Below are positions 921-58,669 of a stretch of 58,669 nucleotides of DNA, piece by piece (the first letter of the stretch is position 1; the number at the start of each line of letters is the position of its first letter). Below the pieces are notes generated by a model. The model ran no database searches and had not been told where the DNA came from. It worked only from the letters and a program-made list of their open reading frames with translations. Both the position numbers and the translations under genes were made by a program. The stretch covers positions 1 to 58,669 of the forward strand of contig JASJEG010000001.1 of the NCBI GenBank assembly GCA_030064765.1. The letters are read 5' to 3'. The DNA comes from Acidimicrobiia bacterium (GTDB lineage: Bacteria > Actinomycetota > Acidimicrobiia > Spongiisociales > UBA5794).

Positions 921-953
921 GGCACCACCCTATGGCATTCCCTCCCAAACTGC

Positions 954-968
954 AAGTGACTTTCACTT
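954..968. promoter_or_regulatory. Candidate TetR operator palindrome AAGTGA-CTT-TCACTT
   Basis: Perfect 6+6 inverted repeat in the 70-bp divergent region between the DUF418 gene (start 920) and the TetR gene (start 991). Confidence 0.35.
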
Positions 969-990
969 TAAAGGCTGCTAGCATCGGGCC

Positions 991-1554
991 ATGGCCAGCC
1001 TACGAGAGCGCAACAAGATCCGCGCCATGAGGGAACTACAAGAGCTCGCACTCGATCTCTTCACCAGAAGTGGCTTTGACGCGGTAACGGTTGAGGATAT
1101 TGCGGCAGCCGGCGGGGTTTCCCCCTCCACCATCTATCGCTACTTCGGCACCAAAGAGCGCCTCGTAGTCTGGGACCGGAGCGATCGGGATATCACAACC
1201 GAACTCAGCAAACGACTAGGCAATCAGGAGCCAATTGCGGCGGTGCGTGACTCGCTACTCGCTGCCTTTGGCGACATAGCCGACCCCAAGGCCCTACTTC
1301 GCAGGGTGCAGTTCATCTATACCACTCCGCAGGTTCACGCGGCCGCCATCGAGCAAGAGCTGACCGATCAGGCGGAACTAGCTGCCGCGTTTGCCGCCGT
1401 CGGGGGAAGGGAACGACCCAACCTCGAAGCCAGCGTGCACGCCGGAGCGTGCATGGCGGCGCTCGGCGCGGCTATCGAGCATTGGCAGGCGGAGGATGGG
1501 CGGCGTCATCTGCCCGACTTGATCGCCGAAGCGTTCGCTGCTCTCGGCAACTAG
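991..1554 (+). CDS. TetR/AcrR family transcriptional regulator
   Basis: N-terminal HTH: RAMRELQELALDLFTRSGFDAVTVEDIAAAGGVSPSTIYRYFGTKERLV. Confidence 0.9.
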   Translation: MASLRERNKIRAMRELQELALDLFTRSGFDAVTVEDIAAAGGVSPSTIYRYFGTKERLVVWDRSDRDITTELSKRLGNQEPIAAVRDSLLAAFGDIADPKALLRRVQFIYTTPQVHAAAIEQELTDQAELAAAFAAVGGRERPNLEASVHAGACMAALGAAIEHWQAEDGRRHLPDLIAEAFAALGN

Positions 1555-6256: not shown

Positions 6257-7528
6257 TCAATCTGTCGCAGACGCGAGTTCGCTGACCTCGCGGTGCGGAC
6301 GAACAGTTCCCCTATCGAACCTGCCGTTAGCCACGAGTCGCCACCCCATCGTCAAGGCAATCAGCAGCATTGGGAGCCCCGGCGAGAAGCCCAGCTGTTG
6401 GATGAACGCCTGGCTTGCGCCGAGCAGCCATATCGCAGCCAGCCAAGGGAGCCACGCCCGGCGCGGCCAAGCTCCTACGGCAACCGCTGCGGTGACAACG
6501 ACGAGTGCTCCATCGTGCGACATAGCGTGCAGAGAGAGCAGCAACACGCCGGGCATCGTGATCGCCATGAGGGGAGCAAGGTCTGCGGTTGGAGTTCGCC
6601 ACCACAGCCAACTCAGCACGACAACGGTGAGCGCCGCCAGCACCCAAGCGATCAGGACGGGAACCGACAATCCGACGCCGAAGATGTTCTCCGCAAAGCC
6701 AATGAAAGAAATGCTCGAGTGGCCATTCAGCTCGGCATCGACTCTGCCGAACTCGCTGGCGACGTCAAGCCATTCACCAACCCATCCCCAACCTCGGATG
6801 ACAGCGCCTGACAGGTAGAAGAGAACGCCGCCAACGGCTGCTCCTTGAACGACCCGCCACTGCCGCTGCAGTAGGAACAACCCAATCATCGGTATCGCAA
6901 ACTGAGGCTTGTAGAGAAGCACCGCAAGCACGAGACCGCCCGCATACGGATGGCCATCATGGATGAGCCGCCACGCCGCCACCAGCGCCAGCAGCGTGAA
7001 CGCGGTATTCGAGCCGCCGGTGATGGTGCGAAACATCGGCCAGAAGAGCAGCGCCGCCGCAATTGCAGGCAAGATTCGGCCACGCAGCCACGGAATCATT
7101 GGCTGAGCCAAGAATGCAGCTGCGCAGAGAGCAGCGGCCATTAGAAGCACGTGGATCAGGTAGGACCAGTAGTAGTCAATCCCAGCCAACGGTTGGTACA
7201 ACCACGCTACTTGCGGCGGGTATGCGAAGAAGCGCGCAACTTCACCGTCGCTGACGGGGTGGAGCCCGCGCTGCGCCTCGATCTGACGATCGAGGCTGTA
7301 AAGCGAGTCCCAATCCCCATCTGCCGCAATCTTGCCGGCTCCGTAGAACGCGGGATAGTCGCCGCCAAAACCATCAGGCGGCGCGCTTGATTCGGCTGCA
7401 CCGATGACCCCGAGCACCACGGCTAGTCCCAAGGCAACAAGGACGGCGATCGGGTAGGCCTTCATGCGGAACGTGTTGCGGCCCGCAGGATCTGTTCTGA
7501 GATCAGATGTGCCCCGATCAGGCCCCAT
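6257..7528 (-). CDS. GT87/DUF2029-like polytopic glycosyltransferase (polyprenyl-phosphate-sugar dependent)
   Basis: About 10 TM helices. The N-terminal loop GGDYPAFYGAGKIAADGDWDSLYSLD resembles the GT-C/DUF2029 motif. The start may instead be the ATG at 7465 (MKAYPIAVLV...). Confidence 0.6.
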   Translation of the reverse strand: MGPDRGTSDLRTDPAGRNTFRMKAYPIAVLVALGLAVVLGVIGAAESSAPPDGFGGDYPAFYGAGKIAADGDWDSLYSLDRQIEAQRGLHPVSDGEVARFFAYPPQVAWLYQPLAGIDYYWSYLIHVLLMAAALCAAAFLAQPMIPWLRGRILPAIAAALLFWPMFRTITGGSNTAFTLLALVAAWRLIHDGHPYAGGLVLAVLLYKPQFAIPMIGLFLLQRQWRVVQGAAVGGVLFYLSGAVIRGWGWVGEWLDVASEFGRVDAELNGHSSISFIGFAENIFGVGLSVPVLIAWVLAALTVVVLSWLWWRTPTADLAPLMAITMPGVLLLSLHAMSHDGALVVVTAAVAVGAWPRRAWLPWLAAIWLLGASQAFIQQLGFSPGLPMLLIALTMGWRLVANGRFDRGTVRPHREVSELASATD

Positions 7529-8240
7529 ACCGCCCCCGCATCAGTCGCCAGCGAACTCTAAGCACGTCGGCAAGAGTCGATAGGTACGAGAGCGCAGTTA
7601 CCCGACTGTCATCCTTGTGAGCCCACGTGACCGGCACCTCCGCGATCGGATATCCCAGATGGCGGGCAACCGCCAGCACCTCGACATCAAAGGCCCACCG
7701 GTCCACGACGGCTTGCGAGAAGATGGCCTCGGCCGCGTCGCCGGAGAACAACTTGAAACCCCGCTGCGAGTCCATGACGCCGGGTAGCGCAATGAGCCGA
7801 ATCACGCGGTTGCCCAAGCGACCTGCTGCAGGACGCAACCCGCGTTGCGCCTGGGTCACAAATGCTCCCTCGACCCCGATCGATGCAAAGGAGATGCCGG
7901 TGCCTCCCAATTCGTCGAGCGCCTTCTCCAATGCTGCCAACTCCGCAATAGGTGTTGACCCGTCTGCGTCGGCGAAGAGACGAAGATCTCCCGAAGCGGC
8001 AAGCATCCCGACGCGAACCGCATGGCCCTTGCCGCGATTGGACTCGGTTCGGAGTACTGCGAGGTTCGGGCATGAACTCCGTTCAGCCACAGCGGCCGTG
8101 GCATCTGTCGAGCCGTCGTCGACAACGATCACCTCTACCTCGTCGACGCGTTCGGCGAGGTACTCACCGATACCCTCCAACGTGGGTCCGAGCCGTGACT
8201 CCTCGTTGTAGCACGGAATGATGACCGAAAGCGTGGTCAC
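7518..8240 (-). CDS. GT2 family glycosyltransferase (polyprenyl/dolichyl-phosphate sugar synthase-like)
   Basis: LSVIIPCYNEESRLGPTLEGI...VIVVDDGSTDAT...ADADGSTP signature. Confidence 0.85.
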   Translation of the reverse strand: MTTLSVIIPCYNEESRLGPTLEGIGEYLAERVDEVEVIVVDDGSTDATAAVAERSSCPNLAVLRTESNRGKGHAVRVGMLAASGDLRLFADADGSTPIAELAALEKALDELGGTGISFASIGVEGAFVTQAQRGLRPAAGRLGNRVIRLIALPGVMDSQRGFKLFSGDAAEAIFSQAVVDRWAFDVEVLAVARHLGYPIAEVPVTWAHKDDSRVTALSYLSTLADVLRVRWRLMRGRYGA

Positions 8241-8369
8241 GACCGACTCCCCGGTTTGCGTCGAGCATTCACCAAACTAGAACTTAGGCGCGTCGAACAG
8301 ATTGATGCCATACCGTCGTATCGGACCAATTGCGGCTGGCTTGAGCCAACCCGACCGTTGCGGCGGCGA

Positions 8370-17433: not shown

Positions 17434-20050
<2,617 letters not shown>

Positions 20051-20054
<4 letters not shown>

Positions 20055-21349
20055 TCCCCCGCTACTCACTACCCGAGATGAGCCGGATCTGGAGCGAGGC
20101 CCGCAAGCTCGAGGTGTGGAAAGAGGTCGAGACACTCGTGGTCGAGGCCTGGGCGCAAGCCGGGGTCGCTCCGGCCGACGCGGCCACAGCTTTGCGCGCT
20201 GCACCCGAGGTCGACCCGGTGGAGTGGAAGACGCGGGAAGAGACCACCAATCATGACGTGGCAGCATTCGTTGATGTCCTTGCGGCATCGCTCGCAACCG
20301 GCGGAGAGTGGGTGCACTACGGACTCACCTCCTCGGACATGCTCGACACCGCCCAAGGTCGGATTCTCAAGGACGCAGCGGAGTTGCTGCAGCAGCGCCT
20401 AGATGACTTGCTGCGTGTTGTCATCCGCCGGGCTGTCGAGCATCGCGACACGGTGATGATCGGGCGCACCCACGGCATCTGGGCGGAGCCAACGACGTTT
20501 GGACTCAAACTGGCGACTTGGGCTTTCGAGATCGACCGTGATCGGACCCGGCTGCGGGCTGCGACATCGTCGATAGCCGTGGGCAAGATCTCTGGTGCCG
20601 TCGGCACCTACGCCCACACGCCGCCGAATATCGAAGCCTATGTGTGCGACCGGCTCGGTCTGGCTGTAGAACCAGCGTCATCTCAGATAACTCACCGCGA
20701 TCGTCACGCCGAGTTTCTGGCCACGCTGGCACTGGTTGGGTCATCCCTCGAGCGCTTTGCTACGGAGATCCGTCATCTGCAGCGATCCGAGGTGGGTGAA
20801 GCCCGCGAGTCATTCGGCAAGGGCCAGAAGGGCTCGTCGGCGATGCCGCACAAGCGGAACCCGATCGCATCCGAGAACGTCACGGGCCTGGCTCGTCTAC
20901 TGCGGTCTTATGCGTCGGCCGGGTTTGAGAACGTCGCACTCTGGCACGAGCGGGACATATCGCACTCGTCGGCAGAGCGGGTGGCGCTGCCGGACGCATG
21001 TTTGATTCTGGACTTTGCGCTGGTTCGGATGACCACGCTGATCGACAACCTCGTCGTCGACCAAGCTCGCATGTTGTCCAACCTCGAGGCGACCCGCGGA
21101 CTCGTATTCTCCCAGGCAGTGCTGCTGGCGATCATCGAGGAACAAGGCCTATCTCGTGACGAGGCATATCGAATCGTGCAACGCAATGCGCTGCGCGCTT
21201 GGGACGAAGGCCTTCCGTTGCGCGACCTCCTCGCCGAAGACATCGACGTCGCACTGCACCCTGACGTGCTCGACCGGTGCTTCAGCCCAGAGCATTTCCT
21301 CCGCCACAGCGGCGTCATCTTCGACCGGCTCGAGCAGATCGAGATCTAG
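20051..21349 (+). CDS. purB: Adenylosuccinate lyase
   Basis: RYSLPEM...TSSD...GSSAMPHKRNP signature. ATGA overlap with the purD stop. Confidence 0.95.
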
Positions 21350-24993: not shown

Positions 24994-26166
24994 CTACGAG
25001 TTCGCTTCTTTGAATGCAAGTAGTCGGTCCATGTTCTGCTCGATGAACTGACGTTCGAGATCTTTGTAGATCTCCTCCCACAGCTCGTACATGTCCTGGG
25101 AACATTCGTAGTTTGCTGTGGCCACCGCAATCTCTTCATCGATCAGCGGTTGCAGCAACTCGATGTCGTACTGCGGACCAAAGAGGCTCGGATCGAAGTC
25201 CGGCTCTTCGCCCTCCTCCAGGTCCTCCCAGAGGGACGGGTCGGGCTCGGGCCAAGTTACGATCTCGTCGACTCGCTGCTGGAACTCACCCACGCCGTAT
25301 TCATCACCGTAGAAGTATGAGTACATCTCTTGTTCGTTGGCGTAGTCATGGCCCTTGTCCGCCATGCAGGAAGACCACTCGTTCTGGGATTCAACGATCC
25401 GCGGATCGGACTGGGCTCGCTCGTAGAAAGCGTCCAGGTCATCGCCAAACTCCTGGTAGAAGGCATCGGCTTCCCCTGAGCCCCACAGGGTCTCGTAGGC
25501 TTCGTTGAAACAGCCGTCAGGCTCCCAGTTGGCATAAGCCTCGTCATAAAAGGCTTCCTGCTCTTCTGGAGTCATCGCCTCGATCTCTTCCCAAGGAGTG
25601 TCTTGGATGATCTCGGGTTCACTGCCGTGGAGTAGCCGGTAGTACTCCTCGCGCTCGGCGTCGTCCATCGCATCGACGATGTCCTGGTTCGGATCGTTGG
25701 CCCAGGGGTCGGACTCCTCGTCGTACATGAAGTTCTCTTCCTCGAGAACCCAGGTGGCGATACCAAAGCCGTATTCCTTGACGTAGGTCTCTTCATCCCA
25801 ATCGTCATAGCCGAAGCCGCCACCGATATCGCTCGGTACGAACGGAATGTACTCAAAGCCCTCGGCCGCCATGCACTCTGCGACCATCTGCTGCGCCTGC
25901 AACTCCTGGGCGCGCCAATCCTGTTCCTCGAAGGCGGTTGGATCGAACCCAGGGATGAAGTCGTTGAGCGTTAGCTCGGCGTCGTCACCGCTACCGCCGG
26001 TTGCGGGCGGCGGCGTCTCATTATCGCCGCCATCCTCTCCGTCGGTTTGGGCCTGCTGCGTTGCAGCCGCGTCATCATCGGCCTGCTCAGTTTCTGTCGT
26101 GGTTCCCCCGCAAGCAGCAACCACGAGTGCCAGGACCGCAAAGATCAGGAGAAACCGTTTCACCAC
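24994..26166 (-). CDS. Highly acidic, Trp/Tyr-rich secreted lipoprotein (unknown family)
   Basis: Lipobox LALVVAACGG and a very high Asp/Glu content. There are four mature Cys residues, in the contexts ECMAAEGFEY, DGCFNEAY, SSCMADKGHDY and YECSQDMY. Confidence 0.6.
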   Translation of the reverse strand: MVKRFLLIFAVLALVVAACGGTTTETEQADDDAAATQQAQTDGEDGGDNETPPPATGGSGDDAELTLNDFIPGFDPTAFEEQDWRAQELQAQQMVAECMAAEGFEYIPFVPSDIGGGFGYDDWDEETYVKEYGFGIATWVLEEENFMYDEESDPWANDPNQDIVDAMDDAEREEYYRLLHGSEPEIIQDTPWEEIEAMTPEEQEAFYDEAYANWEPDGCFNEAYETLWGSGEADAFYQEFGDDLDAFYERAQSDPRIVESQNEWSSCMADKGHDYANEQEMYSYFYGDEYGVGEFQQRVDEIVTWPEPDPSLWEDLEEGEEPDFDPSLFGPQYDIELLQPLIDEEIAVATANYECSQDMYELWEEIYKDLERQFIEQNMDRLLAFKEANS

Positions 26167-26226: not shown

Positions 26227-27042
26227 CTACACGGTTCCGGCCTCGATTGCGGCGACCCGAGCCTCCCCCTCGCCCCCACATACGACCGCGAGTTGCACGG
26301 CACCTCTGCGCAACACGTCTGCTACATCCGCAAACAGCGTTCCATCGGCGAGCTTTGCGTGCAGGGCATCGCCGGGACAGGTGGTACTGGCAAGGTCGCG
26401 ATGCCCTCGAATCGCCGTCGGATCGATGCCGTACTGGGCGGCTCCCCACGCCAACATCCTGACCAGCATCGTGTACTGGTCAGCCGGGACAGTCTGCTCA
26501 TCGAAGTGACCCTCGCAGCAAATCAGGAGGTGACCCGTCGTGTCGTACTCGGTGGCAGTGTCGCCGATAGCCGTCACCGGCCGGCCCTCGTACACGTTGC
26601 CGCGGGCATCTATCAGGTAGTGGTAGGCCAGGTCGGGCCAGCTCAGGCTCTGGTGGTAGGCCTGGTGCTGCCGAGCCCGGGCCGGAGCATCCCGGTTGTC
26701 TTCCAGCAACACTGCGGTGTGATGCACGGTGATCTGGTCGATCTGGTGTTCGCGGAATTCACCGGCAACTGGTTGGGCCCTCCATGCTTCCTTGCAGATG
26801 ACTTCGATCGCGTCGGTGGGAGGATTGGTCGTCGTAGTCGTGCTTGTAGTCGTAGTGGTCGGCGCGGAAGTCGTCGCCGCGGCGGCCGGATTCGTGGTCG
26901 GTTCTGTGGTCGGTACAGCTGACGTCTGGGCAACCGAAGCTTGGTCGCTTCTGACGCCGCAGGCGGCCGCAACGACCGCAACGGCCGCAGCTCCCAGCAT
27001 CGCTAGGAATCGGCGGCGGTCCTGAGAGTCTGCGTGTCTCAT
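26227..27042 (-). CDS. N-acetylmuramoyl-L-alanine amidase (Amidase_2/PGRP fold), Tat-lipoprotein signal
   Basis: Twin-arginine signal RRRFLAMLGAAAVAVVAAACG, then ITVHHTAVL...AYHYLIDARGNVYEGRP...GHLLICCEGHF. Confidence 0.8.
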   Translation of the reverse strand: MRHADSQDRRRFLAMLGAAAVAVVAAACGVRSDQASVAQTSAVPTTEPTTNPAAAATTSAPTTTTTSTTTTTNPPTDAIEVICKEAWRAQPVAGEFREHQIDQITVHHTAVLLEDNRDAPARARQHQAYHQSLSWPDLAYHYLIDARGNVYEGRPVTAIGDTATEYDTTGHLLICCEGHFDEQTVPADQYTMLVRMLAWGAAQYGIDPTAIRGHRDLASTTCPGDALHAKLADGTLFADVADVLRRGAVQLAVVCGGEGEARVAAIEAGTV

Positions 27043-28970
27043 GAGGCCGACTCGATTGCGCCCAAGCTGGGGGCGATCGCTGAACGTGTGAAGCCAAGGA
27101 AGTCGATGATGACACCGGGTAGCGACTCACCGTTCCCGAGCGCCGGACTCCCCGGTGCCGGCCGGTAGCGACCCACGGCATCGCTGATGCCACCCAGCCC
27201 GGTGACGCTTGGTGAGACCACGACGCTGTCGAGCTCGCCGGGGCCGACGACAATATCTGTGGGCTGCGGGAATGGGGGAATGCCCGGTGTCGCGCTTCCC
27301 GAGTTGTGGAACGCCCCAGCCCATAGTTGCGGACCGAAGCTGATCGTTGCTGCGCCTCCGTCATTCCTGGCGTATTGCGGATCTCCTCCGGTGCCCACAA
27401 CGAGGTTGTTGCTGATGTGGACGTTGTCGTTGCCGCTCGAGCCGCCGGAAGAGTTGTTGCCGTTCTGCAGACGGAACACCGCAAAGGCGCTCTGGGTCAC
27501 AATCGTGTTGTTGTAGACATATGCACCGTCGACCCCCCTGATCTCGACCGCGGAGTCGTCGAAGTCTGCGATCAGGTTGTTGCGTGCGGTCTGATTGACG
27601 CCTTCCCACGCCGGGTGGGCCGGATCCCAGAAGGCTGCGCCCGTATTGCCACCGAGCTGCAAGGCCGCGTTGGCCCGAATGCCCCTGATGAGATTGCCCT
27701 CGATGAGGATGTCCGACGAGCCACCTTTGAAGAATATGCCGTGACTTCCGGCCGCGTTGTCGTGGATGTCATTCCCAATCACAACCGCGCCGGCAACACC
27801 AACACCATCGATGATTGCGTTGTTGATGGCCTCGCTGACATCGTTGTTTTCTAGGCAGATTGTGCCAACACCGGCGCCTTGGGGATTGTTGCGGTTGATC
27901 TTGATCGCGGCCCCCGGTCCCCAGGCGAGATCATGAATGACCGTGTCGGCAACGTGGACGTGGTGGACGTCTTCGGACCCTGGGGCGATGTGGAGGTTGT
28001 TGCCACCTCCATTGCGGATGTCGACTCCTTGCAGTGAAACGTACGAAGCGCCGATTCGGAACTCGCCAGCGCCGTTCAGATCGATGATTGGGGTTGTGCC
28101 GGGAGCTGCCTTGATGTGGATCCAGGCCGCCGGAAGACCGGATTGAGTAATTGCCACGTTGCCACCGGGACGATGCACACCAGCCTCCAGGACAATATGG
28201 TCCCCGGGACGCGCATCGGCAAAGGCCTCACCAAGCGTGGGTGATTCGCCAGGACGAACGATTATCTGGCGGTTGGGCACGGTACCGGAGTCCGGCCGCA
28301 CACAGTTGGATGCGGTTGATGGAGGGATCAGGGGTGCCAGTCCAAGTGCTCGCCCCAGAAACGAGGCCATTTGGTCGCGTCGCACGGGATCGGAGGGGCA
28401 GTACCGGGTGTTGGTCGGCGGGTTGCAGCCCAGTGTGACTCCGGCATTTCGCAACCGATCGATGTCCTGTTCGAAGATCGACCCATCGTCATCCGTGAAC
28501 CAGTCACCGGCACCCGGGTCGTCGTATCCGAAAGCCCTGACCAAGAAGGCCGCCATCTGGTCACGGGTTACGTCGCCATTTGGGCAGTACCGGTCGTTCG
28601 CCGGCGGATTGCAGCCTCGGGTCACGCCCGCGGCTGCAAGGGCGTTGATGTCACCCTCGAACAGTGAGCCGTTGTCATCCATGAAGTAGTCGGTGCTAGC
28701 CGGTGCCAACCCGAGCGCGCGAACCAGGAAGGCTGCCATCTGCCCTCGAGTAACCAAGGCAGTCGGGCAGTACCGATCGTTGATAGGCGGGTTGCAACCC
28801 GTGGTGACGCCGGCTTCCTTGATGGCCTCGATGTAGCCCTCGTGGATGTTCCCGTCGTCGTCTACGAAGGAACCGCCAGGCGGAAGATCGGCCAAGGCGG
28901 CAGTCGGTGCCAGCAGCGCCAGCAGTGCCGTCACCAGAGTCAGCGAGCGCGCCCATCGATACGGAAACAT
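27039..28970 (-). CDS. Secreted protein: three SLH-like ~60-aa repeats plus a right-handed parallel beta-helix domain
   Basis: The motif (F.DD.GSI.E.DI..L..AGVT.GCNPP.N.RYCP...VTR.QMA.FL.RALG) occurs three times. Beta-helix repeats follow (NNDVSEAINNAIIDGVGV...IGNDIHDNAAGSHGIFFKG...). 4-nt overlap with the amidase gene. Confidence 0.7.
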   Translation of the reverse strand: MFPYRWARSLTLVTALLALLAPTAALADLPPGGSFVDDDGNIHEGYIEAIKEAGVTTGCNPPINDRYCPTALVTRGQMAAFLVRALGLAPASTDYFMDDNGSLFEGDINALAAAGVTRGCNPPANDRYCPNGDVTRDQMAAFLVRAFGYDDPGAGDWFTDDDGSIFEQDIDRLRNAGVTLGCNPPTNTRYCPSDPVRRDQMASFLGRALGLAPLIPPSTASNCVRPDSGTVPNRQIIVRPGESPTLGEAFADARPGDHIVLEAGVHRPGGNVAITQSGLPAAWIHIKAAPGTTPIIDLNGAGEFRIGASYVSLQGVDIRNGGGNNLHIAPGSEDVHHVHVADTVIHDLAWGPGAAIKINRNNPQGAGVGTICLENNDVSEAINNAIIDGVGVAGAVVIGNDIHDNAAGSHGIFFKGGSSDILIEGNLIRGIRANAALQLGGNTGAAFWDPAHPAWEGVNQTARNNLIADFDDSAVEIRGVDGAYVYNNTIVTQSAFAVFRLQNGNNSSGGSSGNDNVHISNNLVVGTGGDPQYARNDGGAATISFGPQLWAGAFHNSGSATPGIPPFPQPTDIVVGPGELDSVVVSPSVTGLGGISDAVGRYRPAPGSPALGNGESLPGVIIDFLGFTRSAIAPSLGAIESAS

Positions 28971-31725: not shown

Positions 31726-33252
31726 TCAGCCTCCAACCTGTTGCGGAGCAGCGGGCGGCGGGGAAGCGACGAGATCGAAGAGCATTGCGGCCGGGGAGTC
31801 GGCGATACGGACGACCTTCATCTCGATCCCGTACCACTTGACACCGCTTCTGGTCTGGTTGTTGAGCCAGGCGAGTGCTTTGAGTTGATCTTCATGGAGC
31901 GTGGCTGATACCAGAGCTACCGAAGCGGCTCCCGAGGACGCCGCCATGCCGAGGGCCCGGCCCAAATCGGAATCATCGGCGATGGCGCTCTTCGATGACA
32001 CCACAACGACGTCTTCGCCGTTGTCGTCACGTCCGAGCACACCGGTAGCACTCTTGGTTGTGAATTGACGGGCTTCCGACAAGCCATGTTGCAGACCGAG
32101 CACATCGCCCAACTGCTGCGAATGCGCCAGAAACCACGGGGCGAAGTCTTCGGCCCCTTGGGCCCAGACGCTCTCCGGGTCAACCAGCTCGAGCGTACCA
32201 AAATCCATCATTACCTCCGTTGGCGCATCGGCTCCGTCGCTTGTCGGGGCCTGCTCATATTCACCACTTGGCACCGGAACGCTCTCGGGAACGGTCACCG
32301 GTTCGGGAGCAACTTCTGCCACGGGCTCCAGATCACTTTCTGCTACCGGTGGCACGGCGGCAGGAGTGGCTTGGGGAGTGATCGGCATCGGCGGTAGATA
32401 CTCGGAGGAACCGGGTGCGGGTATGTGTGGCTCGGGCAGAGGGGGCTCATCCACATTGGCGGCAGCCTGTTCGGCCATTGCTGCCAGGTGCGCTTCCGCT
32501 TCTCCCCACGACTGCTCGGCGCCTTCACGAGCTCGCTCACTGAAGCCGTCTGTGGAACCGTTGTAGTCCTCCCACGGGCTTGGTTCAACAGCTATCGGTT
32601 CACCGCCTACATCGACTGCAGAAAAGGTAGCCGATTCGCTCTCGTCCTCCACCGACTCGCCGCTCTCCTCCTCCAACGACTCGGCAAGGTGCTCACTTAC
32701 TTCGGGATAACCTTCGTCCGCTAACGGCGGGGTGATCTCGCCCTCGTTCTCTTCCTCCACGGCAGGGAGCTCTTCCTCCAGGGCAGGGGCCTCGTCCCCT
32801 ACGACAGGCGCCTCCTCCACGGCAGGGACCTCGTCCTCGACGGCGGGCGCCTCCTCCACGGCAGGGACCTCGTCCTCGACGGCGGGCAGCTCCTCGACGG
32901 CAGGCAGCTCCTCGACGGCAGGCAGCTCGTCCACGACAGGCAGTTCCTCCTCGACAACGGGGAGCTCCAAGCCGGGTGCCGGATCCTGATCTCCGTTGTT
33001 CGAGGGCTGGGTTGCCTCGATGCGAGCCACCGATTGCTCCACCTCGATGAGACGTGCTGCGTGAAGTATGTCGCCGCTCGTTAACTTCCCGCCCTCGCCG
33101 GAGCCGACAATGGTGTCTAGATCGATGAGGCCGCTTTCGACGAGTCGACGAGCGCGCGGTGACAATTCGTCCATGGCAATCGCGTCCGATCCATGAGCGA
33201 CTGACCTCTGCTGCTCATATGAGCTCTTACGACGCCGGCGTCTGCGTGCCAC
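31726..33252 (-). CDS. Chimeric protein: poly-Arg N-terminus + E3-binding (PSBD) domain + acidic tandem repeats + degenerate PD-(D/E)XK-like C-terminal domain
   Basis: MARRRRRRKSS; LSPRARRLVESGLIDLDTIVGSGEGGKLTSGDILHAA matches the E3_binding consensus; (ELPAVE)n/(AVEDEVPAVEEAP)2 repeats. The C terminus GVLGRDDNGEDVVVVSSKSAIADDSDLGRALGMAA...LKALAWLNNQT...WYGIEMKVVRIADSPAAMLF aligns to the IENQLE.TDHDHLG...WLNE nuclease-like family but lacks its catalytic residues. Confidence 0.7.
   Translation of the reverse strand: MARRRRRRKSSYEQQRSVAHGSDAIAMDELSPRARRLVESGLIDLDTIVGSGEGGKLTSGDILHAARLIEVEQSVARIEATQPSNNGDQDPAPGLELPVVEEELPVVDELPAVEELPAVEELPAVEDEVPAVEEAPAVEDEVPAVEEAPVVGDEAPALEEELPAVEEENEGEITPPLADEGYPEVSEHLAESLEEESGESVEDESESATFSAVDVGGEPIAVEPSPWEDYNGSTDGFSERAREGAEQSWGEAEAHLAAMAEQAAANVDEPPLPEPHIPAPGSSEYLPPMPITPQATPAAVPPVAESDLEPVAEVAPEPVTVPESVPVPSGEYEQAPTSDGADAPTEVMMDFGTLELVDPESVWAQGAEDFAPWFLAHSQQLGDVLGLQHGLSEARQFTTKSATGVLGRDDNGEDVVVVSSKSAIADDSDLGRALGMAASSGAASVALVSATLHEDQLKALAWLNNQTRSGVKWYGIEMKVVRIADSPAAMLFDLVASPPPAAPQQVGG
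32750..32960 (-). repeat. In-frame tandem coding repeats (39-nt unit x2, 18-nt unit x3) inside the PSBD-chimera gene
   Basis: Units 32811-32849 and 32850-32888 are identical except for the last nucleotide. GCTCCTCGACGGCAGGCA occurs at 32889-32906 and 32907-32924, with a diverged third unit. Confidence 0.85.
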
Positions 33253-47756: not shown

Positions 47757-47954
47757 CTACCGCACGCTGGCAGCCAGCGCAGAGGCGCACGGGGAGCACC
47801 AATAGCCGTCGACTGTGAAGCGCGCATCCTCATCGACGATGTGGCCACAGAAGCCGCACCGCTGCGTGAGAAAGTCTTCGGCGATAGCAAGGAAGGGGCC
47901 GTCACTCCGAAAGAGGTCACCTACCAAGACGGCCCTACTAGTCCCGTTCTTCAT
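47757..47954 (-). CDS. Candidate small zinc-ribbon-like protein
   Basis: CGFCGH...CSPC Cys pairs and coding-like codon usage. No clear SD at the ATG, so the start is uncertain. Confidence 0.35.
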   Translation of the reverse strand: MKNGTSRAVLVGDLFRSDGPFLAIAEDFLTQRCGFCGHIVDEDARFTVDGYWCSPCASALAASVR

Positions 47955-48008
47955 GAGATGAAAGAGGTTAGTGGGGTCGGGCCCGCTATCCGAGCTTCGG
48001 TCGCGGCT

Positions 48009-48245
48009 TCAGTCGAACAACTTCCTGACCAGTGGCCCGACCTCGTCATAATCGGTGTGACGACCGGTCTGCTTCTTCGAGTAGACGAGCTCGTCGCCGA
48101 CGATCACTTCGAAAACGCCACCTCCGGACGGAATCAGCGTGAAGTCGTCGATCTTGTGCTCGAACTCTTCGAGTATCTGTCCAGCCATGCTCACGGCACG
48201 GTTGCGATACCCTCAAACAGCGCAGTACTCGATGCTCAGTTTCAT
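48009..48245 (-). CDS. SelW/Rdx-family selenoprotein (in-frame UGA = Sec at codon 11)
   Basis: Manual translation from ATG 48243-48245 (AGGA 7 nt upstream): MKLSIEYCAV-U-GYRNRAVSMAGQILEEF...LIPSGGGVFEVIVGDELVYSKKQTGR... The TGA at 48213-48215 occupies the second redox position of the family's IEYCxxC/U motif. The track lists only the 61-aa portion downstream of the TGA. Confidence 0.75.
48171..48212 (-). promoter_or_regulatory. Candidate bacterial SECIS hairpin
   Basis: mRNA: UGA-GGGUAUC-GCAA-CCGUGC-CGUGA-GCAUGG-CUGGACA-GAUACUC. The lower stem is 7 bp and the upper stem 6 bp. The 5-nt apical loop contains GU and begins 18 nt after the last base of the UGA. Confidence 0.6.
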
Positions 48246-48314
48246 GGCGTCATCCTAACCTCGGCACCCGTTTCGGCTCGGTGCAGACCTCTGAGGCCGA
48301 TCCATCCCAATTCT

Positions 48315-48364
48315 CCGTTCTTGCGTAACTGGCGGCACATATCCGCCGTGATGTACGCAAGAAC
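48315..48364 (+). repeat. Nested-hairpin intergenic repeat, copy 4 (REP-like)
   Basis: CCGTTCTTGCGTAA-CT-GGCGG-CACATAT-CCGCC-GTGATG-TACGCAAGAAC. It lies between the DUF4342 stop and the SelW-like start. Confidence 0.85.
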
Positions 48365-48442: not shown

Positions 48443-48733
48443 TTACTCCGCTCCGGGCTCGTCTGATCCGGGCTCCTCGGCGTCCTCCGCTGCAGCCTCA
48501 GTGCGGGTAATCGTCACCGTGCATTCAGTGACCAACGCCGCTACCGCGCCAATTGCGGCCGCCACCGGAGCGATCAACGCCCCAACCACGCCGATGGTCA
48601 ACGGTATCTCCAGCATGGTGCGCCCGTCGCCGCTCTTGATGGTGACTTGACGAACGTTGCCTTCTCTTATCAGTTCCCGCACCTTGCCCAGTAGCTCATC
48701 ACCCTTGACTCTGAACTCTTCGACCTGCTCCAC
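48443..48733 (-). CDS. DUF4342 domain protein
   Basis: EEFRVKGDELLGKVRELIREGNVRQVTIKSGDGRTMLEIPLTIGVVGALIAPVAAAIGAVAALVTECTVTI. Confidence 0.8.
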   Translation of the reverse strand: MEQVEEFRVKGDELLGKVRELIREGNVRQVTIKSGDGRTMLEIPLTIGVVGALIAPVAAAIGAVAALVTECTVTITRTEAAAEDAEEPGSDEPGAE

Positions 48734-52074: not shown

Positions 52075-54813
52075 TCAGCAGGTCGCGGTCGCCCCGCCAT
52101 GAAGTCTGGTCACTCGACTGAGCACATCGCGCGGGTCCTCGTCGAGTTCGCCGTGCATGGAGGCGTAGTAGTCGGAGGCGTCGAGCGGGTCAGCCGGCTC
52201 GACGCGGAAGGTCCATCCTCCGTCGCACTCAGACAGGAATGAGTCAGGAAGGGTGACCCGATCACCGTACGCTACGACGAGATCTGCAACGCGAGAGCCC
52301 ACGCCAATCCCTTCCTCAGTTTCCAGGCCGGACTGCGTTACACCCCAGCCAACGAAGTGCGGAACACCGTCACTTCGGTAGTAGTTGCCATCACTCAGGA
52401 CCAAGTACAAACCGACCTGGTCCCAGTCGACGAGTCGGAAGAAGCGATTAGCCCCATAGCCGTACGGCATCGCCGTCTGCTCTGCGACGGGATCTATGAA
52501 TATGTCGCGGTCTGGAGAGCCGAGTAGCGATATCACTGTCTCGACGACAAGTTCGGCAGGGTCTCCAAACGAAGCTGTTCCCAAACCATCGGGCCGTAGC
52601 ACAAGTTCGGATCTGGCGGGTGTCGTCGGCTCTTGCCGCATCAGCGCTACTCCGCCATCCACCTGGACAGGTTCACGCAGGCCCCAGGTGTCGTAGATGG
52701 TCACAGTCTTGGCGTCGACCCAATCTCCCTGCTCGACGGCAACGAAACGACCGTCGAAATCGATGACGAAGGTCCGGGCGGGTGCGGTGACACGAAACAC
52801 CTCATGGCCTGTGTCGAGGTCCATGACGACGACGTCGGCGAGGATCTCCTGAGTCTCACTCCACCACTCATCCCGTTGTCCACACATCAGACGCCCGTCG
52901 CTATCCGATGGGGCATCCGCACGGTGGGAGTACGCCAGGAGACGGCCGTCAGGGGAGATCGCCGCGCTCAGTTCACACGGGTGGCACGGCTCAGCGACGG
53001 GATTGTGTGGGTGCTGGATGCGGTTCCCATCGCCGTCCCATAGGGAGATGACTCTGTCCGAGTAGCCGCACCCGGCCGCAACACCGTCCACCCCGACAAA
53101 CAAACCCTCGCCGTACGATTGTGGGTAGCTCCAGGCTTCCAGAACGAACCCGATATCGGGCACCCGTCGCTCGTAACCGGAGCGGAGACCCACCAACAAC
53201 ATGTCCGCGGCCTCATCGGCATAGTTCACGTCGGGGACAATCACCACAGCAGTTGGCTCACCCTCGATGTGCGCAACGAAGCGCAAGTCGTGGAGCAGAT
53301 TGTCGGTCGAGCCGTCCGCCCTCAGCCAGTCGGTCGTTTCGGGATCGAGTTGCGAGCGCCACCGGTAGATGACGCCGCCCATCAGGTCATCAGCGGCCCA
53401 CGTCACCGGGTGGGCATCGAGCTGAGTTTCGGATCCGTGCGCCACGCGGTACAGCCCGTCGTCGCCGAAGCGGTAGTAGCTGGGTCCGTCGACAGCGGCG
53501 GTCGCCACATACCTGGGGTAGCAGTCAGTGTCGAGCGCTTCGCAGTATGCGACGGCTTCATCCTGGGTTAGGAAGTGCCCGGTGAACACAGCCCAATAGC
53601 CCGGATTCAGGCTGACAAACCCATCGGACCACAGGACTCCTGTCTCGACGGCATGTTGCGCCGCGAGCTCGGCGGCGATGTGCTGGGCCGCGTCGTAGTC
53701 CGTGGTGGTGTTGTCAAGCGAGGCGAGCATCACCGTCCAGAACGGTGACGGTCCGGTCAGAGCGGGTGGTGCAGTGAAGCTCTCGCCGCTCTCGATGTCG
53801 AACAACTCGCGGCCCGTACGTGTAGCCACCGTCGCAATGCGACCGTCGAACCCGGTCAACTCGGCATCTGCGACAACATCGGTTCGGAACACCTCGACGC
53901 CGGTCGCCATGTCCACGACCACAACTTGGGTCGGGATGTCTTGTTGCTGTTCCCGCCACTCGCGATAGGCACGCGTGTAATCGCCGTCGAATGGCTCCGG
54001 CGGTTCAGAAAACGCAGTCGGCCAGAGCGAGTACGCCAGGAGCGCTCCGTCCGAAGACAGTCGTGCGGACATTCGGCACGGGTGACACGACTCTTCAAAT
54101 GGGTTGTGTTTCACCGTGATTTCCTGACCTGCGAGGTCATAGAAGCGCAGAACGCTGGTGCCCGAACCAATGAGTTGCCACCGGCCCAACGACAAAAAGA
54201 GACCTCCGCCAAACGAGGTGATTTCGCGCCACGCGTCCGAGCTGAACTCGCGGCACATGAGGAACTCCTCGGCTCCGGTCGTCAGGTCCCGGATCGAGAG
54301 TTCCTCCATGAACTCCTGGTTCTCGCACCGAGTCATGTTCTCGGAGCTTCTCGATACCAGAGCTGTAGGTCGACCGTCGAGGAGAAAGAAGAAGCCGTTG
54401 GGGATGTCGGTCGGACGGTCGGCGCCCGCAGGTAGCCACGCCTGACCCGGCTGCGCGGCAACCGACTCGAAGACGATTCCTCCGGCGCCGTCGTCGGCTG
54501 CCCACCGCACCGGCTCGGCAAGCAGGAATTCCGGTCCTTCGGGGTGAACTCGGGTGACACCCTCCCAGCCATACACCAGATAGGACGGTGCTGCGACATC
54601 GGTAGCTGACGTGGAGGACTGGGTGTCAGCTGGAGCCTCGGTGGGTTCAGGAACCGTTGCGTCAGCAAGAGTGGTCGACGGTGGAAGTGGCGGTGCGGCC
54701 GAGATTGCGGTGTCCTCGGCCGAAGTACTACAGGCAGCACCGATCAGCATTGCCATGAGAAGCCAAGTGAGCATCCGACGCGGCCGGCAGCCGGACGACG
54801 CAGCGCTCAACAT
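52075..54813 (-). CDS. Large secreted lipoprotein (912 aa): two beta-propeller-like modules, a SPOR-like insert and a conserved C-terminal domain
   Basis: Lipobox LIGAAC. Internal duplication. The motif NP.[EA]E[SP]CHPC...S.DG.LLAYS occurs twice. The middle segment GYWAVFTGHFLTQDEAVAYCE is SPOR-like. It is a paralog of the upstream gene. Confidence 0.7.
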   Translation of the reverse strand: MLSAASSGCRPRRMLTWLLMAMLIGAACSTSAEDTAISAAPPLPPSTTLADATVPEPTEAPADTQSSTSATDVAAPSYLVYGWEGVTRVHPEGPEFLLAEPVRWAADDGAGGIVFESVAAQPGQAWLPAGADRPTDIPNGFFFLLDGRPTALVSRSSENMTRCENQEFMEELSIRDLTTGAEEFLMCREFSSDAWREITSFGGGLFLSLGRWQLIGSGTSVLRFYDLAGQEITVKHNPFEESCHPCRMSARLSSDGALLAYSLWPTAFSEPPEPFDGDYTRAYREWREQQQDIPTQVVVVDMATGVEVFRTDVVADAELTGFDGRIATVATRTGRELFDIESGESFTAPPALTGPSPFWTVMLASLDNTTTDYDAAQHIAAELAAQHAVETGVLWSDGFVSLNPGYWAVFTGHFLTQDEAVAYCEALDTDCYPRYVATAAVDGPSYYRFGDDGLYRVAHGSETQLDAHPVTWAADDLMGGVIYRWRSQLDPETTDWLRADGSTDNLLHDLRFVAHIEGEPTAVVIVPDVNYADEAADMLLVGLRSGYERRVPDIGFVLEAWSYPQSYGEGLFVGVDGVAAGCGYSDRVISLWDGDGNRIQHPHNPVAEPCHPCELSAAISPDGRLLAYSHRADAPSDSDGRLMCGQRDEWWSETQEILADVVVMDLDTGHEVFRVTAPARTFVIDFDGRFVAVEQGDWVDAKTVTIYDTWGLREPVQVDGGVALMRQEPTTPARSELVLRPDGLGTASFGDPAELVVETVISLLGSPDRDIFIDPVAEQTAMPYGYGANRFFRLVDWDQVGLYLVLSDGNYYRSDGVPHFVGWGVTQSGLETEEGIGVGSRVADLVVAYGDRVTLPDSFLSECDGGWTFRVEPADPLDASDYYASMHGELDEDPRDVLSRVTRLHGGATATC

Positions 54814-57314
54814 GGTGAGCGATCCCAGCCGGCGCCGATGTACACGATCGTCGTATCGTCGGTTGCGGGCTCACCTGAAAGCAGGCCCCAGATCGGAAGC
54901 TGCAACCACCCCTCCGGTGGATCGATGAGGAAGGTGCCTTGAGAAAAGCCGCAATCTTCGTCAAAGAGCTGCACGCTTGGGTAGGCCGACCTGAGGTCGT
55001 ACACCGTATCTCCTACTGCGATACCGGCCTCGGTGGAGTAGGCGTCGGACTTGGCCAAGTAATAGTGAAAGACCGGCCCCGCCGGCATCGGTTCGGGTGG
55101 CTGGGGAGCGGCATCGAAGTAGTCCCAGAAGGTGAACTGCAGGTAAAGGAACGGGTGGTTCCACTGCACCGATACATCGACCTCTGGGGAGTTTTGGGAT
55201 TCGACAACGTCCGGTGGGCCGAGCAGTTCGGTGAGCACTGCCATAACGTCATCGACGGGGTCGCCAAATGACACGACACCCAAACCGTCGTGGCGCAAGA
55301 CAAGGTTCGGCGTCTGTCGGATCAGTGCGACATCGCCGTCAACCTCGACCGGTTCGTGCACCCCCCAGGTGTCATAGACAACGCTCCCTTTTGCCCCGAA
55401 GTCGACGGCATAGCTCGGCCCGACCACCAGGTAGCGCCCGTCGAAGTCAGCGAGTCGGACCCCAGGATCGAGCTTCTTGTTCCAAAGCTCTCTGCCGCTG
55501 GACATGTCGACTACCGCAACCTCAACCGGAACGTTCTCGGCCGTCGCTCTCCAGGTCTCGTAGGCGGATTCGTAGTCAACGGCGGGCAGGGGCCAGAAAG
55601 CCGTCGGCCACAGGGAGTAGGCCAAGAGCGCACCGTCGTCTGAAATCTCGACACCCAGATGGCACGGTAGACAAGGCTCTGGAACCGGGTTAGCACCCAC
55701 CGTTACCTCGTTGCCGGATAGATCCTGGAACACGAGACGTCTGTCCGTCGACATGGCCCACTCCACGCCGACGAGCAGGTTGCCGCCAAGGGAGGTGAAC
55801 CACCGACCTCCGTCGGGCCCTTCTTCATGGCAGAAGAGGAAGGTTTGCTCATCGGCCACCAGGTCGTGGAGCACTACCGGGCCGCCAAAGTCGTAGTCAG
55901 GGCAGACCTCCCACTCGGGGTCGGACAAGCTGGCAACAAGCACCGGCCGGCCATCCACTAGTGACGCATCCCATACGCCCTCCACGGGAAGGAGTTCGGG
56001 ATCAGCCGCACCGGCCCCGAGCCAAAGAACGTCACTTGACACGTCGTAGGGCCGACGGAACACAACACCGCCCATCAGGTCATCCATGGCCCAGATGATC
56101 GGCTGGGTCTCGAGCTGCGTTTCTACGCCTTCGACTACCCGGTACAACCCATCGTCGCCGTACCGGTAGTAGCTGGGTCCGTCTCCAACCTGGACCGGGA
56201 CTGCAATGTCCGTAGGCGTATCGACAAAGCGCGCCCTCCCGGCGATAGGCAGCGCGACGGGATCCGACTCGGGGGCATTGAGGTCGAACACAAGGGTTTG
56301 CTGGCTGTTGTGGTCCCCAAACGTTGCCAGGGCTCTAGTTGCGGAAAGGTCGATGTCTCTCAGAGCGCCGACGCTTCCGGGCACGATGAACGTGGTTGTC
56401 CCGGTATCCGCAATGAGGTCCCAGAGCCGGAGCACGGGCGGTTGGAGATCGTTGTCTTGGAACTCCGCAACACTGAATGCAAGGTGCTGGCCGTCTGGAG
56501 ACAACCGGCACCCTCTCACATAGTCCTCCGACGTCGGGTCGCTGGCCTCCCCAGGAACGAGCCCTGTCGGTTGGCCGTCCAGATCGAATATGAAGCATCC
56601 CGAGCCGATTTGCTGGAACCACACGCCGGCAATCAGCTCACCATTGGTCGACACATCGCCGTAGCCCTGTTCCCAAGCTCCCTGCGCGTAGAGGTCGATC
56701 ACTTGCCGAGCCGGAACATCGAATCTTCGCAACCGATCGATCATGTCGTCGACGGCCGGAGGTGAACCCTCGTGACGGGAATAGAGAACCGCAAAGCCGT
56801 CGTCGGTTGCATATGCGTCGTGAAGACTCAGCCAGTGATTGGCGCCAGGGGTAGGAACCAGTAGCTCTTGCGGTCTCGAGGCCCCCCCTGGGATCCACCA
56901 CACGATGGTCGACCACTCGGTCTCTTCGTCCCAGTTGCGGCCCCGGTCGACCTGAAAAAGCAACCCGCCCTGTGTGTCATCCACTGCATACGCAACTGGT
57001 CCCGATACAAGCAGCGTTACATCGCCCTCGGGGCCGATCTGATAGACGCCGTCATCAGCGGTGACCAGTACGGTCTCACCGATCCCCGCTACCGACACAA
57101 CAGGGGCAACCGTGCTCGTGGTCGTTGTCGTCACACTCGGTGAAGGCGGAGCAGTGGTGCTGCTCACCGGCGCAGCAGCCACAGTGGTCGATGTGGTGCT
57201 CGTGGTCTGAACAGAGTCCTCATCGCCGCTGCAGGCTGATAGGACGAGCAAGAACGCCGTGGTCGCAACCAACAACTCACGCAAACCGACACAACGGTTG
57301 CGCATGCCGTTCAC
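54807..57314 (-). CDS. Large secreted lipoprotein (835 aa), paralog of the 52075-54813 gene
   Basis: Lipobox LLVLSACSG. Segments shared with the paralog: PSYYRYGDDGLYRVVEGVETQL...WAMDDLMGGVVFR, NPVPEPCLPCH...SDDGALLAYSLWPTAF, and the C-terminal LVLRHDGLGVVSFGDP... domain. Its stop overlaps the downstream start (ATGTTGA). Confidence 0.7.
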   Translation of the reverse strand: MNGMRNRCVGLRELLVATTAFLLVLSACSGDEDSVQTTSTTSTTVAAAPVSSTTAPPSPSVTTTTTSTVAPVVSVAGIGETVLVTADDGVYQIGPEGDVTLLVSGPVAYAVDDTQGGLLFQVDRGRNWDEETEWSTIVWWIPGGASRPQELLVPTPGANHWLSLHDAYATDDGFAVLYSRHEGSPPAVDDMIDRLRRFDVPARQVIDLYAQGAWEQGYGDVSTNGELIAGVWFQQIGSGCFIFDLDGQPTGLVPGEASDPTSEDYVRGCRLSPDGQHLAFSVAEFQDNDLQPPVLRLWDLIADTGTTTFIVPGSVGALRDIDLSATRALATFGDHNSQQTLVFDLNAPESDPVALPIAGRARFVDTPTDIAVPVQVGDGPSYYRYGDDGLYRVVEGVETQLETQPIIWAMDDLMGGVVFRRPYDVSSDVLWLGAGAADPELLPVEGVWDASLVDGRPVLVASLSDPEWEVCPDYDFGGPVVLHDLVADEQTFLFCHEEGPDGGRWFTSLGGNLLVGVEWAMSTDRRLVFQDLSGNEVTVGANPVPEPCLPCHLGVEISDDGALLAYSLWPTAFWPLPAVDYESAYETWRATAENVPVEVAVVDMSSGRELWNKKLDPGVRLADFDGRYLVVGPSYAVDFGAKGSVVYDTWGVHEPVEVDGDVALIRQTPNLVLRHDGLGVVSFGDPVDDVMAVLTELLGPPDVVESQNSPEVDVSVQWNHPFLYLQFTFWDYFDAAPQPPEPMPAGPVFHYYLAKSDAYSTEAGIAVGDTVYDLRSAYPSVQLFDEDCGFSQGTFLIDPPEGWLQLPIWGLLSGEPATDDTTIVYIGAGWDRSPC

Positions 57315-57496: not shown

Positions 57497-58669
57497 TCAC
57501 CGGAGCTGTGCCATCTCCTCGACCACCGCCACCAGTCGGTCGATTTCGTCCTCCGTGTTGAAGTAGTGAACCGATGCCCGCACCACCTCGGTGAGCCCGC
57601 GCTGCTCCATGTCGATTCGGGCCGAGTACACCGAGGCAACCGAGGTGTTGATCCGCATCCGCAGCAGCTCATCTTTCACTTGCGATGCGTCGACCCCGGC
57701 AACGCCGAAAGTCACGATGCCGCCTTTGACTGTGCCCTTGTCATGCACTGTGACCCCGTCAACCTGCGACAGGGCAGCTCGCAGGATCGCGGCCAGTGAC
57801 GCCACCCGCTCCCAGATGGCGCCGAGTCCGACGCCGAGGGCGTAGTCGCAGGCTGCAGCCAGGCCGAGCCGCAGCGCCGGGCTCGATTCCCAGGTTTCGA
57901 AGCGCTTGGCGTCTTTCCGGACTTCGTAGCGACCGGTCTCTACCCAGCGGGCCCCGTGCAGATCGAGCATTGCCGGCTCCAAGGACTCGATCATCGTGTC
58001 CCGCACGTAGAGAAAGCCCACCCCGCGCGGACCCCGCACGAACTTGCGGCTGGTCGCCGAGAGCATGTCGCACCCGATCTCATCGACGTCGATCGGCATC
58101 TGTCCGACCGACTGACAGGCGTCGAGCAGAAAAGGCACCCCGGCGTCCCTGGCGATGCTGCCGACGGCAGCAGCCGGGTTCACCAGCCCGCTGTTGGTGG
58201 GGACGTGGTTCATCGAGATCAGCTTTGTCTGATCGTCGAGCATGGCTTCGAGAGCTTCGAGATCAACCGTTCCGGATTCATCATCTGGGACCAGCTCGAT
58301 GATCGCCCCGGTCCTCGCCGCTACCTGCAAGTAGGCGATGAAGTTGGCGGCATACTCCGTGGTCGTCGTGAGGATGCGATCGCCGGCAGCAAGAGGGAGC
58401 GAATAGAACGCCATGTCCCAGGCCCGGGTGGCGTTGTCGACCAGAGCGATTTCGTCTTCGTGCGCACCGACCAGACCCGCCACCGACCGATAGACCGATG
58501 CGATCTCGTCGCCACGCCGGTCCGCCAACTCGTAGCCCCCGACGATGGATTCCTCGCGCAGGTACTCGACAACAGTGTCGACGACCACGGCTGGGGGCAA
58601 TGAAGCTCCGGCGTTGTTGAAGTGCGCAACCTCGGCACAACCCGGGGTGTCGGCTCGTACGCGGGCCAA
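57497..58669 (-). CDS. Class V aminotransferase-fold PLP enzyme (cysteine desulfurase/epimerase-like); 5' end probably beyond the window
   Basis: HFNNAGASLPP...SMNHVPTNSGLVNP...SATSRKFVRGPRGVGFLYV (PLP-lysine context). Confidence 0.8.
   Translation of the reverse strand: MARVRADTPGCAEVAHFNNAGASLPPAVVVDTVVEYLREESIVGGYELADRRGDEIASVYRSVAGLVGAHEDEIALVDNATRAWDMAFYSLPLAAGDRILTTTTEYAANFIAYLQVAARTGAIIELVPDDESGTVDLEALEAMLDDQTKLISMNHVPTNSGLVNPAAAVGSIARDAGVPFLLDACQSVGQMPIDVDEIGCDMLSATSRKFVRGPRGVGFLYVRDTMIESLEPAMLDLHGARWVETGRYEVRKDAKRFETWESSPALRLGLAAACDYALGVGLGAIWERVASLAAILRAALSQVDGVTVHDKGTVKGGIVTFGVAGVDASQVKDELLRMRINTSVASVYSARIDMEQRGLTEVVRASVHYFNTEDEIDRLVAVVEEMAQLR

Follow-up and report, generated by a model that had tools for sequence, protein, structure and literature searches.

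Among the prokaryotic selenoprotein families known, SelW-like proteins with a CxxU motif are the most abundant in marine metagenomes. Prokaryotic SelW-like selenoproteins, with their arrangement of UGA and SECIS, have been in the literature since 2005 (Zhang, Fomenko & Gladyshev 2005, PMC1088965; Zhang & Gladyshev 2008, PMC2398784). In the bacterial CxxU proteins of this type, a SECIS hairpin lies downstream of the UGA and carries a conserved G in its small apical loop (PMC1088965, PMC2398784, PMC1794560), and the criterion given for a bacterial SECIS is a stem-loop that follows the UGA immediately and has a G in its small apical loop (PMC1088965). Cys forms of the SelW-like family are few in Sec-containing organisms (PMC1794560).

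The DNA analyzed here, a stretch of 58,669 nt that we refer to in its full length as the window, carries on its minus strand a probable further member of this family. Judged from sequence comparison, we put the probability at about 0.92 that positions 48245-48009 are a genuine Sec-encoding SelW-like gene with a Cys8-x-x-Sec11 active site (Table 1). The ORF list for the window holds only a 61-aa ORF at this gene, beginning at GTG 48194. A preliminary description of the locus had extended this frame upstream, through an in-frame TGA and a TGC, to an ATG with AGGA 7 nt before it, and each of these elements is found on the minus strand where it had been placed. The codons read ATG AAA CTG AGC ATC GAG TAC TGC GCT GTT TGA GGG TAT CGC AAC, continue with CGT GCC GTG AGC ATG GCT, and end with GAC TGA. 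Translation yields MKLSIEYCAV, a stop at the in-frame TGA, and then GYRNRAVSMAGQILEEFEHKIDDFTLIPSGGGVFEVIVGDELVYSKKQTGRHTDYDEVGPLVRKLFD up to the terminal stop; with the UGA read as U, the product is MKLSIEYCAV-U-GYRNRAV...KLFD, of 78 aa. Since the TAG at 48257-48255 closes the frame, the N-terminal segment has no other possible start than the ATG at 48245-48243. The 6-bp stem, which begins 11 nt past the UGA, and its 5-nt loop at +18 agree with the SECIS criterion cited above (PMC1088965).

Table 1. Features of the SelW-like locus in window coordinates, listed in the direction of reading.
Feature	Position	Strand	Remarks
In-frame TAG	48257-48255	minus	Closes the frame 5' of the ATG
Shine-Dalgarno-like AGGA	48256-48253	minus	7 nt 5' of the start; read from the sequence, putative function
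Predicted SelW-like/Rdx selenoprotein CDS	48245-48009	minus	78 aa plus stop, predicted Sec at codon 11
ATG, probable true start of the 78-codon gene	48245-48243	minus	Upstream TAG and orthologue entropy
TGC, Cys of the CxxU redox motif	48224-48222	minus	First and second codon positions invariant in 78 orthologues
In-frame TGA, predicted Sec codon (U11)	48215-48213	minus	Invariant in orthologues; aligns with the second Cys of CxxC
Outer 7-bp stem, GGGUAUC / GAUACUC	48212-48206 / 48177-48171	minus	Encloses the hairpin (48212-48171); here and in the closest relatives only
Upper stem, 5' arm CCGUGC	48201-48196	minus	Starts 11 nt after the UGA
Apical loop CGUGA	48195-48191	minus	Begins 18 nt after the A of the UGA
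Upper stem, 3' arm GCAUGG	48190-48185	minus	6 bp with CCGUGC; conserved hairpin 48201-48185
Internal GTG and internal ATG	48194-48192 and 48188-48186	minus	Gene callers' starts for the 61-aa and 59-aa products
Terminal TGA stop	48011-48009	minus	Read from the sequence

Orthologues were assessed in a set with one genome per species, made up of the best 80 matches (47-87% amino-acid identity) and drawn mostly from Acidimicrobiia/Actinomycetota and Chloroflexota MAGs. TGA occupies the CxxU codon in all 80 of these loci from different species, and its flanks are kept, with [IL]EYCxx before and xYxx[RK]A after it. No Cys form occurs among these best 80 matches. Entropy per position is flat at about 1.8-1.9 bits up to 30 nt before the TGA and becomes codon-periodic from -30 to -1, with values of 0/0/0.47 bits at the three positions of the Tyr codon and 0/0/0.51 bits at those of the Cys codon. 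This periodicity indicates that the N-terminal segment is translated; an ATG stands at codon -10 in 45 of 78 loci. As the preliminary description had expected, the orthologues do not begin at the downstream GTG or ATG, given that the IEYCxxU segment is present in 80/80 loci with coding periodicity.

The 78-aa product, entered in the profile searches with C in place of U, matches Pfam PF10262 (Rdx, formerly PF05169) at 76.1 bits against a cutoff of 22.6 (E 2.4e-21), covering profile positions 2-74 of 74. It also passes NCBIfam TIGR02174 (CXXU_selWTH) with 57.6 bits against a cutoff of 34.2, over positions 1-72 of 74. The Campylobacter-type equivalog NF041051 (SelTWH_Campy) is not passed (74.2 bits, cutoff 88), which suggests a protein that is related to that equivalog group without being a member of it. 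A sequence search of the PDB finds solved Rdx proteins, namely 2fa8 (E 4.8e-10, residues 2-78), 3dex, 2p0g and 2npb. When IEYCAV[U]GY is set against IRYCTQCNW of 2fa8 and IEYCTQCRW of 3dex, the U falls on the second Cys of CxxC, which is the outcome of the alignment with Cys-type Rdx proteins that had been proposed as a check. Homology to these solved structures suggests a thioredoxin-like alpha/beta fold, and every Rdx/SelW-like family criterion that was tested points to membership.

Automatic annotation tells a different story, in which the gene callers would be right: UGA 48215 would terminate, or the upstream segment would be untranslated, and the product would be 59 or 61 aa long, from ATG 48188 or GTG 48194. 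A protein search returned 102 homologues, and the closest of these, about 70, are all automatic calls of 59-65 aa that start at an internal Met, the nearest being 59-aa calls; the truncation by gene callers that the preliminary description predicted is thus found throughout the nearest relatives. The short ORF still matches Rdx (E 3.2e-12), but only over profile positions 19-74, so the first beta-strand and the redox motif are lost. What is missing, profile positions 1-18, comprises strand beta-1 and the whole CxxC/U motif, and the Rdx/SelW membership claimed earlier extends to a full-length domain, by both PF10262 and TIGR02174, only with the UGA read through. Moreover, in about 80 species the 10 codons before the TGA conserve their amino acids while their third positions wobble, which is unexpected of an untranslated leader. 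The internal GTG lies in the loop of the SECIS-like hairpin and the internal ATG in its 3' arm, both inside a conserved structure and both without an upstream Shine-Dalgarno sequence. We consider a truncated product very improbable.

The preliminary description had also proposed a SECIS-like hairpin with an upper and a lower stem. The stem arms and the CGUGA loop starting 18 nt after the UGA are present as proposed; the 6-bp upper stem stood up as a conserved element with compensatory changes, whereas the 7-bp lower stem is present in this sequence but did not hold as a conserved part. Taken by itself, the upper stem folds with a ΔG of -8.0 kcal/mol, and pair probabilities in the outer stem are 0.74-0.98 in the window sequence. 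Folded on its own, the window sequence gives no significant structure (MFE -17.5 kcal/mol, z = -1.07; 26 of 200 shuffles fold as well), so that the significance of the hairpin comes from the orthologue comparison only. The MFE structure uses another upper stem than the structure of the preliminary description, which has -15.5 kcal/mol.

Among 79 unique orthologue sequences, 77 have a perfect stem, placed in either of two registers. In register A, to which the window belongs, the 6-bp stem pairs +12 to +17 with +23 to +28, counted from the UGA, around a loop at +18 to +22; in register B, a stem of 5-6 bp carries the loop at +22 to +26. The two registers, seen in alignments of loci L005-L084 over the first 48 nt from the UGA, lie 4 nt apart and form their stems from different codons, and both occur in Actinomycetota and Chloroflexota MAGs. 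All cells are paired for the upper 6-bp stem in register A (100%) and 74.8% for the register-B stem, figures that are partly circular because sequences were sorted into registers by pairing; the synonymous-codon randomization and the compensatory changes are evidence independent of this sorting.

Covariation of the upper stem in register A is 0.205 against a shuffle mean of 0.097, and that of the register-B stem 0.166 against 0.064; in each case 0 of 500 shuffles reach the observed value. Changes on both sides of the stem were seen in 10 cells of register A, with CG replaced by UA in 6 sequences and UA by GC or AU in 4. In register B, a CG pair becomes GC by two synonymous changes that go together, from GCC to GCG for Ala and from ACG to ACC for Thr. 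RNAalifold predicts exactly the upper 6-bp stem from 38 orthologues and independently recovers the register-B stem as well. In L086, an AT-rich marine homologue, a hairpin is retained at the register-B position with the same AGUCU loop, though it is weaker.

For the synonymous-codon null, the protein was kept and the codons resampled in 200 replicates, and the stems scored were perfect ones of 6 bp or more whose loop starts 12-24 nt after the UGA. Such a stem is present in 92% of the sequences, against a null mean of 26.5% and a maximum of 38% over the 200 replicates; scanned in this way at other offsets, these genes yield 10-25%. A G occupies the second position of the loop in at least 90% of register-A sequences and in every register-B sequence, and it stays nearly invariant although the encoded residue varies between Gly, Arg and Ser. 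These observations argue that the upper hairpin is under RNA-level selection beyond codon constraint. Nothing SECIS-like was matched in Rfam, either by a gathering search of the whole window or by a permissive search of 48100-48300.

Two other stems were rejected as conserved features. The outer 7-bp stem has 59.8% of its cells paired across 38 orthologues, with four of its seven pairs mostly unpaired, and is lineage-specific. The alternative upper stem of the MFE structure (GCCGU/AUGGC plus CCG/UGG) is 76.6% paired on 38 orthologues, and its covariation of 0.126 compares with a shuffle mean of 0.124 and is reached by 178 of 500 shuffles.

Tentatively, and with the odds somewhat against it in our estimate, the SECIS hairpin may have moved between two discrete registers within one family while Sec was retained in 80/80 species. 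If true, the register shift would be a natural experiment on the UGA-to-loop spacing that SelB tolerates and on the way in which an RNA element inside a coding region is remade while the protein constrains it. The retention of Sec would then suggest that no other residue can take over its function in this clade.

Genes for Sec insertion, whose presence in the organism the preliminary description had taken to follow from the gene, were sought in the window and around the orthologues. The 58.7-kb window contains no tRNA genes at all, and ARAGORN found no tRNA-Sec either there or in the flanks of the 80 loci. With E. coli probes, tblastn gave no match for selD, selA or selB in the window; the SelA probe, an unvalidated one, matched nothing in the orthologue loci either. 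Likewise, Pfam and NCBIfam scans of the 28 large window ORFs revealed no sel genes. Four of the 80 orthologue loci carry a selD or selB homologue within about 10 kb: SelD in L012 and L050 (TIGR00476, 367 and 338 bits), SelB in L079 (TIGR00475, 311.6 bits), and a selB match found by tblastn only in L082 (E 5e-58). No selA was found among the ORFs neighboring selB in L079. A GC3-filtered scan for ORFs split around TGA, aimed at a second selenoprotein in the window, was too noisy and missed the SelW-like gene itself.

The SelD proteins of L012 (about 461-1510, minus strand) and L050 (about 7240-8309, plus strand) are themselves selenoproteins, with an in-frame TGA in SHGAG-U-ACK and SKCAG-U-ASK, respectively. 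ORF finders consequently truncate the N-termini of these SelD proteins too.

The lack of sel genes and tRNA-Sec hits within the 58.7-kb window would fit a reading of the UGA as a standard amino acid, either Trp or Gly by reassignment of the code or Cys or Trp by near-cognate suppression. So would the Trp at the Sec position in several database entries (P0071, P0076-P0094). These full-length homologues, however, carry W where their DNA has TGA (L085 301-543 and L086 601-831; P0071, P0079 and similar), which means that genetic code 4 was applied in gene calling; the W entries are such translations of short metagenome contigs. In the window, TGA is an ordinary stop that closes 18 of 38 long ORFs and also ends the SelW-like gene, from which it follows that TGA is not reassigned in this genome. 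The UGA stands at the catalytic second Cys of CxxC, a position at which Trp or Gly would abolish the motif, and a conserved hairpin at SECIS distance would have no role in plain read-through. In addition, relatives encode SelD(U) or SelB near the orthologue. Decoding as a standard amino acid is, in our judgment, just as improbable as the truncated product. The least credible explanation is that a TGC or TGT, one base away from TGA, was mutated to it in a pseudogene or misread through a sequencing or assembly error in a metagenome-type assembly. It appears effectively refuted by comparative data, namely the same TGA in four independent near-identical contigs (L001-L004) and in 80/80 orthologues of other species, with the downstream frame and residues still conserved.

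The surroundings of the gene were also inspected. A contig of the MAG GCA_029979655.1 shows 98.9% identity to the window. A DUF4342 gene of 96 aa (48443-48733, minus) lies 197 nt upstream on the same strand, and it is also found in L001 and L004. Two metagenome contigs, L002 and L003, are 99.5% identical to the window over 47906-48350 and have an rve-family transposase (L002 656-1831, L003 1-1176) directly upstream of the SelW-like gene, where the window has DUF4342; the homologous point is at about 48350. The arrangement has the appearance of an IS that inserted, in a sister strain, some 100 nt before the start codon. A promoter/terminator scan found no pattern on the strand of the SelW-like gene.

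Farther away, on the plus strand at 17497-21349, is a purine-biosynthesis cluster of purA (adenylosuccinate synthetase), purD (phosphoribosylglycinamide synthetase, GARS) and purB (adenylosuccinate lyase), which is an ordinary housekeeping context. Five large ORFs lie on the minus strand, two of them adjacent with an overlap of 8 nt (52075-54813, 912 aa; 54807-57314, 835 aa) and three elsewhere (31726-33252, 508 aa; 24994-26166, 390 aa; 27039-28970, 643 aa). Pfam and NCBIfam gave no match for these five, save weak NosD-like and LRR-like matches in 27039-28970. At the window edge, the ORF at 57497-58669 (minus) encodes a class-V aminotransferase of the cysteine-desulfurase family whose best matches are SufS/EgtE-like; SclA selenocysteine lyase scores 71.6 bits against a cutoff of 525, and all matches of this ORF are below their curated cutoffs.

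If the SelW-like gene encodes Sec, as we propose, translation would start at ATG 48245 and the ribosome would meet UGA 48215-48213 with the hairpin 11 nt behind it (6-bp stem, CGUGA loop with G second), which would act as a bacterial SECIS. By the established bacterial pathway, SelB·GTP·Sec-tRNA(Sec) would bind the apical part of the hairpin and deliver Sec to the UGA in the A site. Sec would then be inserted instead of termination, and translation would continue to the ordinary TGA at 48011-48009. The product is most likely a small thiol/selenol oxidoreductase of thioredoxin fold, which may cycle between a selenolate/thiol form and a Cys8-Sec11 selenenylsulfide.

The gene and nearly all of its closest database relatives are mis-annotated: with about 70 entries truncated to 59-65 aa and others written with Trp at the Sec codon, the catalytic CxxU motif is missing from the protein catalogues of Acidimicrobiia and Chloroflexota MAGs. 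The gene marks its organism as a probable selenocysteine user and contributes to estimates of how Actinomycetota from sediment and marine settings use selenium. The roughly 80 aligned natural SECIS variants could help to train bacterial SECIS models, which Rfam appears to be without. The finding is mildly new in three respects: the consistent mis-annotation of a high-GC clade, the two-register SECIS, and the complete lack of Cys forms in the best 80 matches. Mainly, it is an annotation correction whose value is practical and not conceptual, and knowledge of selenoproteins is unchanged by it.

Of the known systems, the SECIS elements of E. coli fdhF and fdnG, which are SelB-binding hairpins directly 3' of the UGA within the coding sequence, resemble the present one in position. 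The 11-nt spacer between UGA and stem matches that of the fdhF minimal stem. A small apical loop with G-U is a shared feature as well, and register-B loops such as GGUCU are close to the fdhF loop GGUC. The two differ in their stem and loop sequences and in the bulged U, which is not evident in the 6-bp stem here.

Mammalian selenoprotein W (2npb, E 1.5e-3) and SelT/SelH/Rdx12 belong to the same Pfam family and have CxxU at the beta-1/alpha-1 junction, although sequence similarity to mammalian selenoprotein W is distant. In eukaryotes, Sec insertion depends on a SECIS in the 3' UTR with SBP2 and eEFSec and not on a coding-region hairpin read by SelB. Cys-type Rdx proteins of solved structure, which include Atu0228 (2fa8), SAV_2001 (3dex), the "selenoprotein W-related protein" 2p0g, 2ojl, 2oka and 2obk, can be aligned over residues 2-78 with the redox motif at the same place. 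They differ in having CxxC instead of CxxU, in being about 25 residues longer, and in needing no recoding signal.

The closest likeness is to the prokaryotic SelW-like proteins, with which the product shares a length of about 75-80 aa, an N-terminal beta-strand ending in CxxU, an xIPSxGGxFEV core and an SKK motif. Shared too are the UGA codon, the small hairpin directly downstream of it with G in the apical loop, and the scarcity or lack of Cys-form orthologues (80/80 Sec here; PMC1794560). The locus differs from described SelW-like genes in that the hairpin of its family occurs in two registers 4 nt apart. Unlike the first-described SelW-like sequences, which are low-GC and marine, the present ones come from high-GC Acidimicrobiia/Actinomycetota and Chloroflexota MAGs, and nothing fundamental differs between them.
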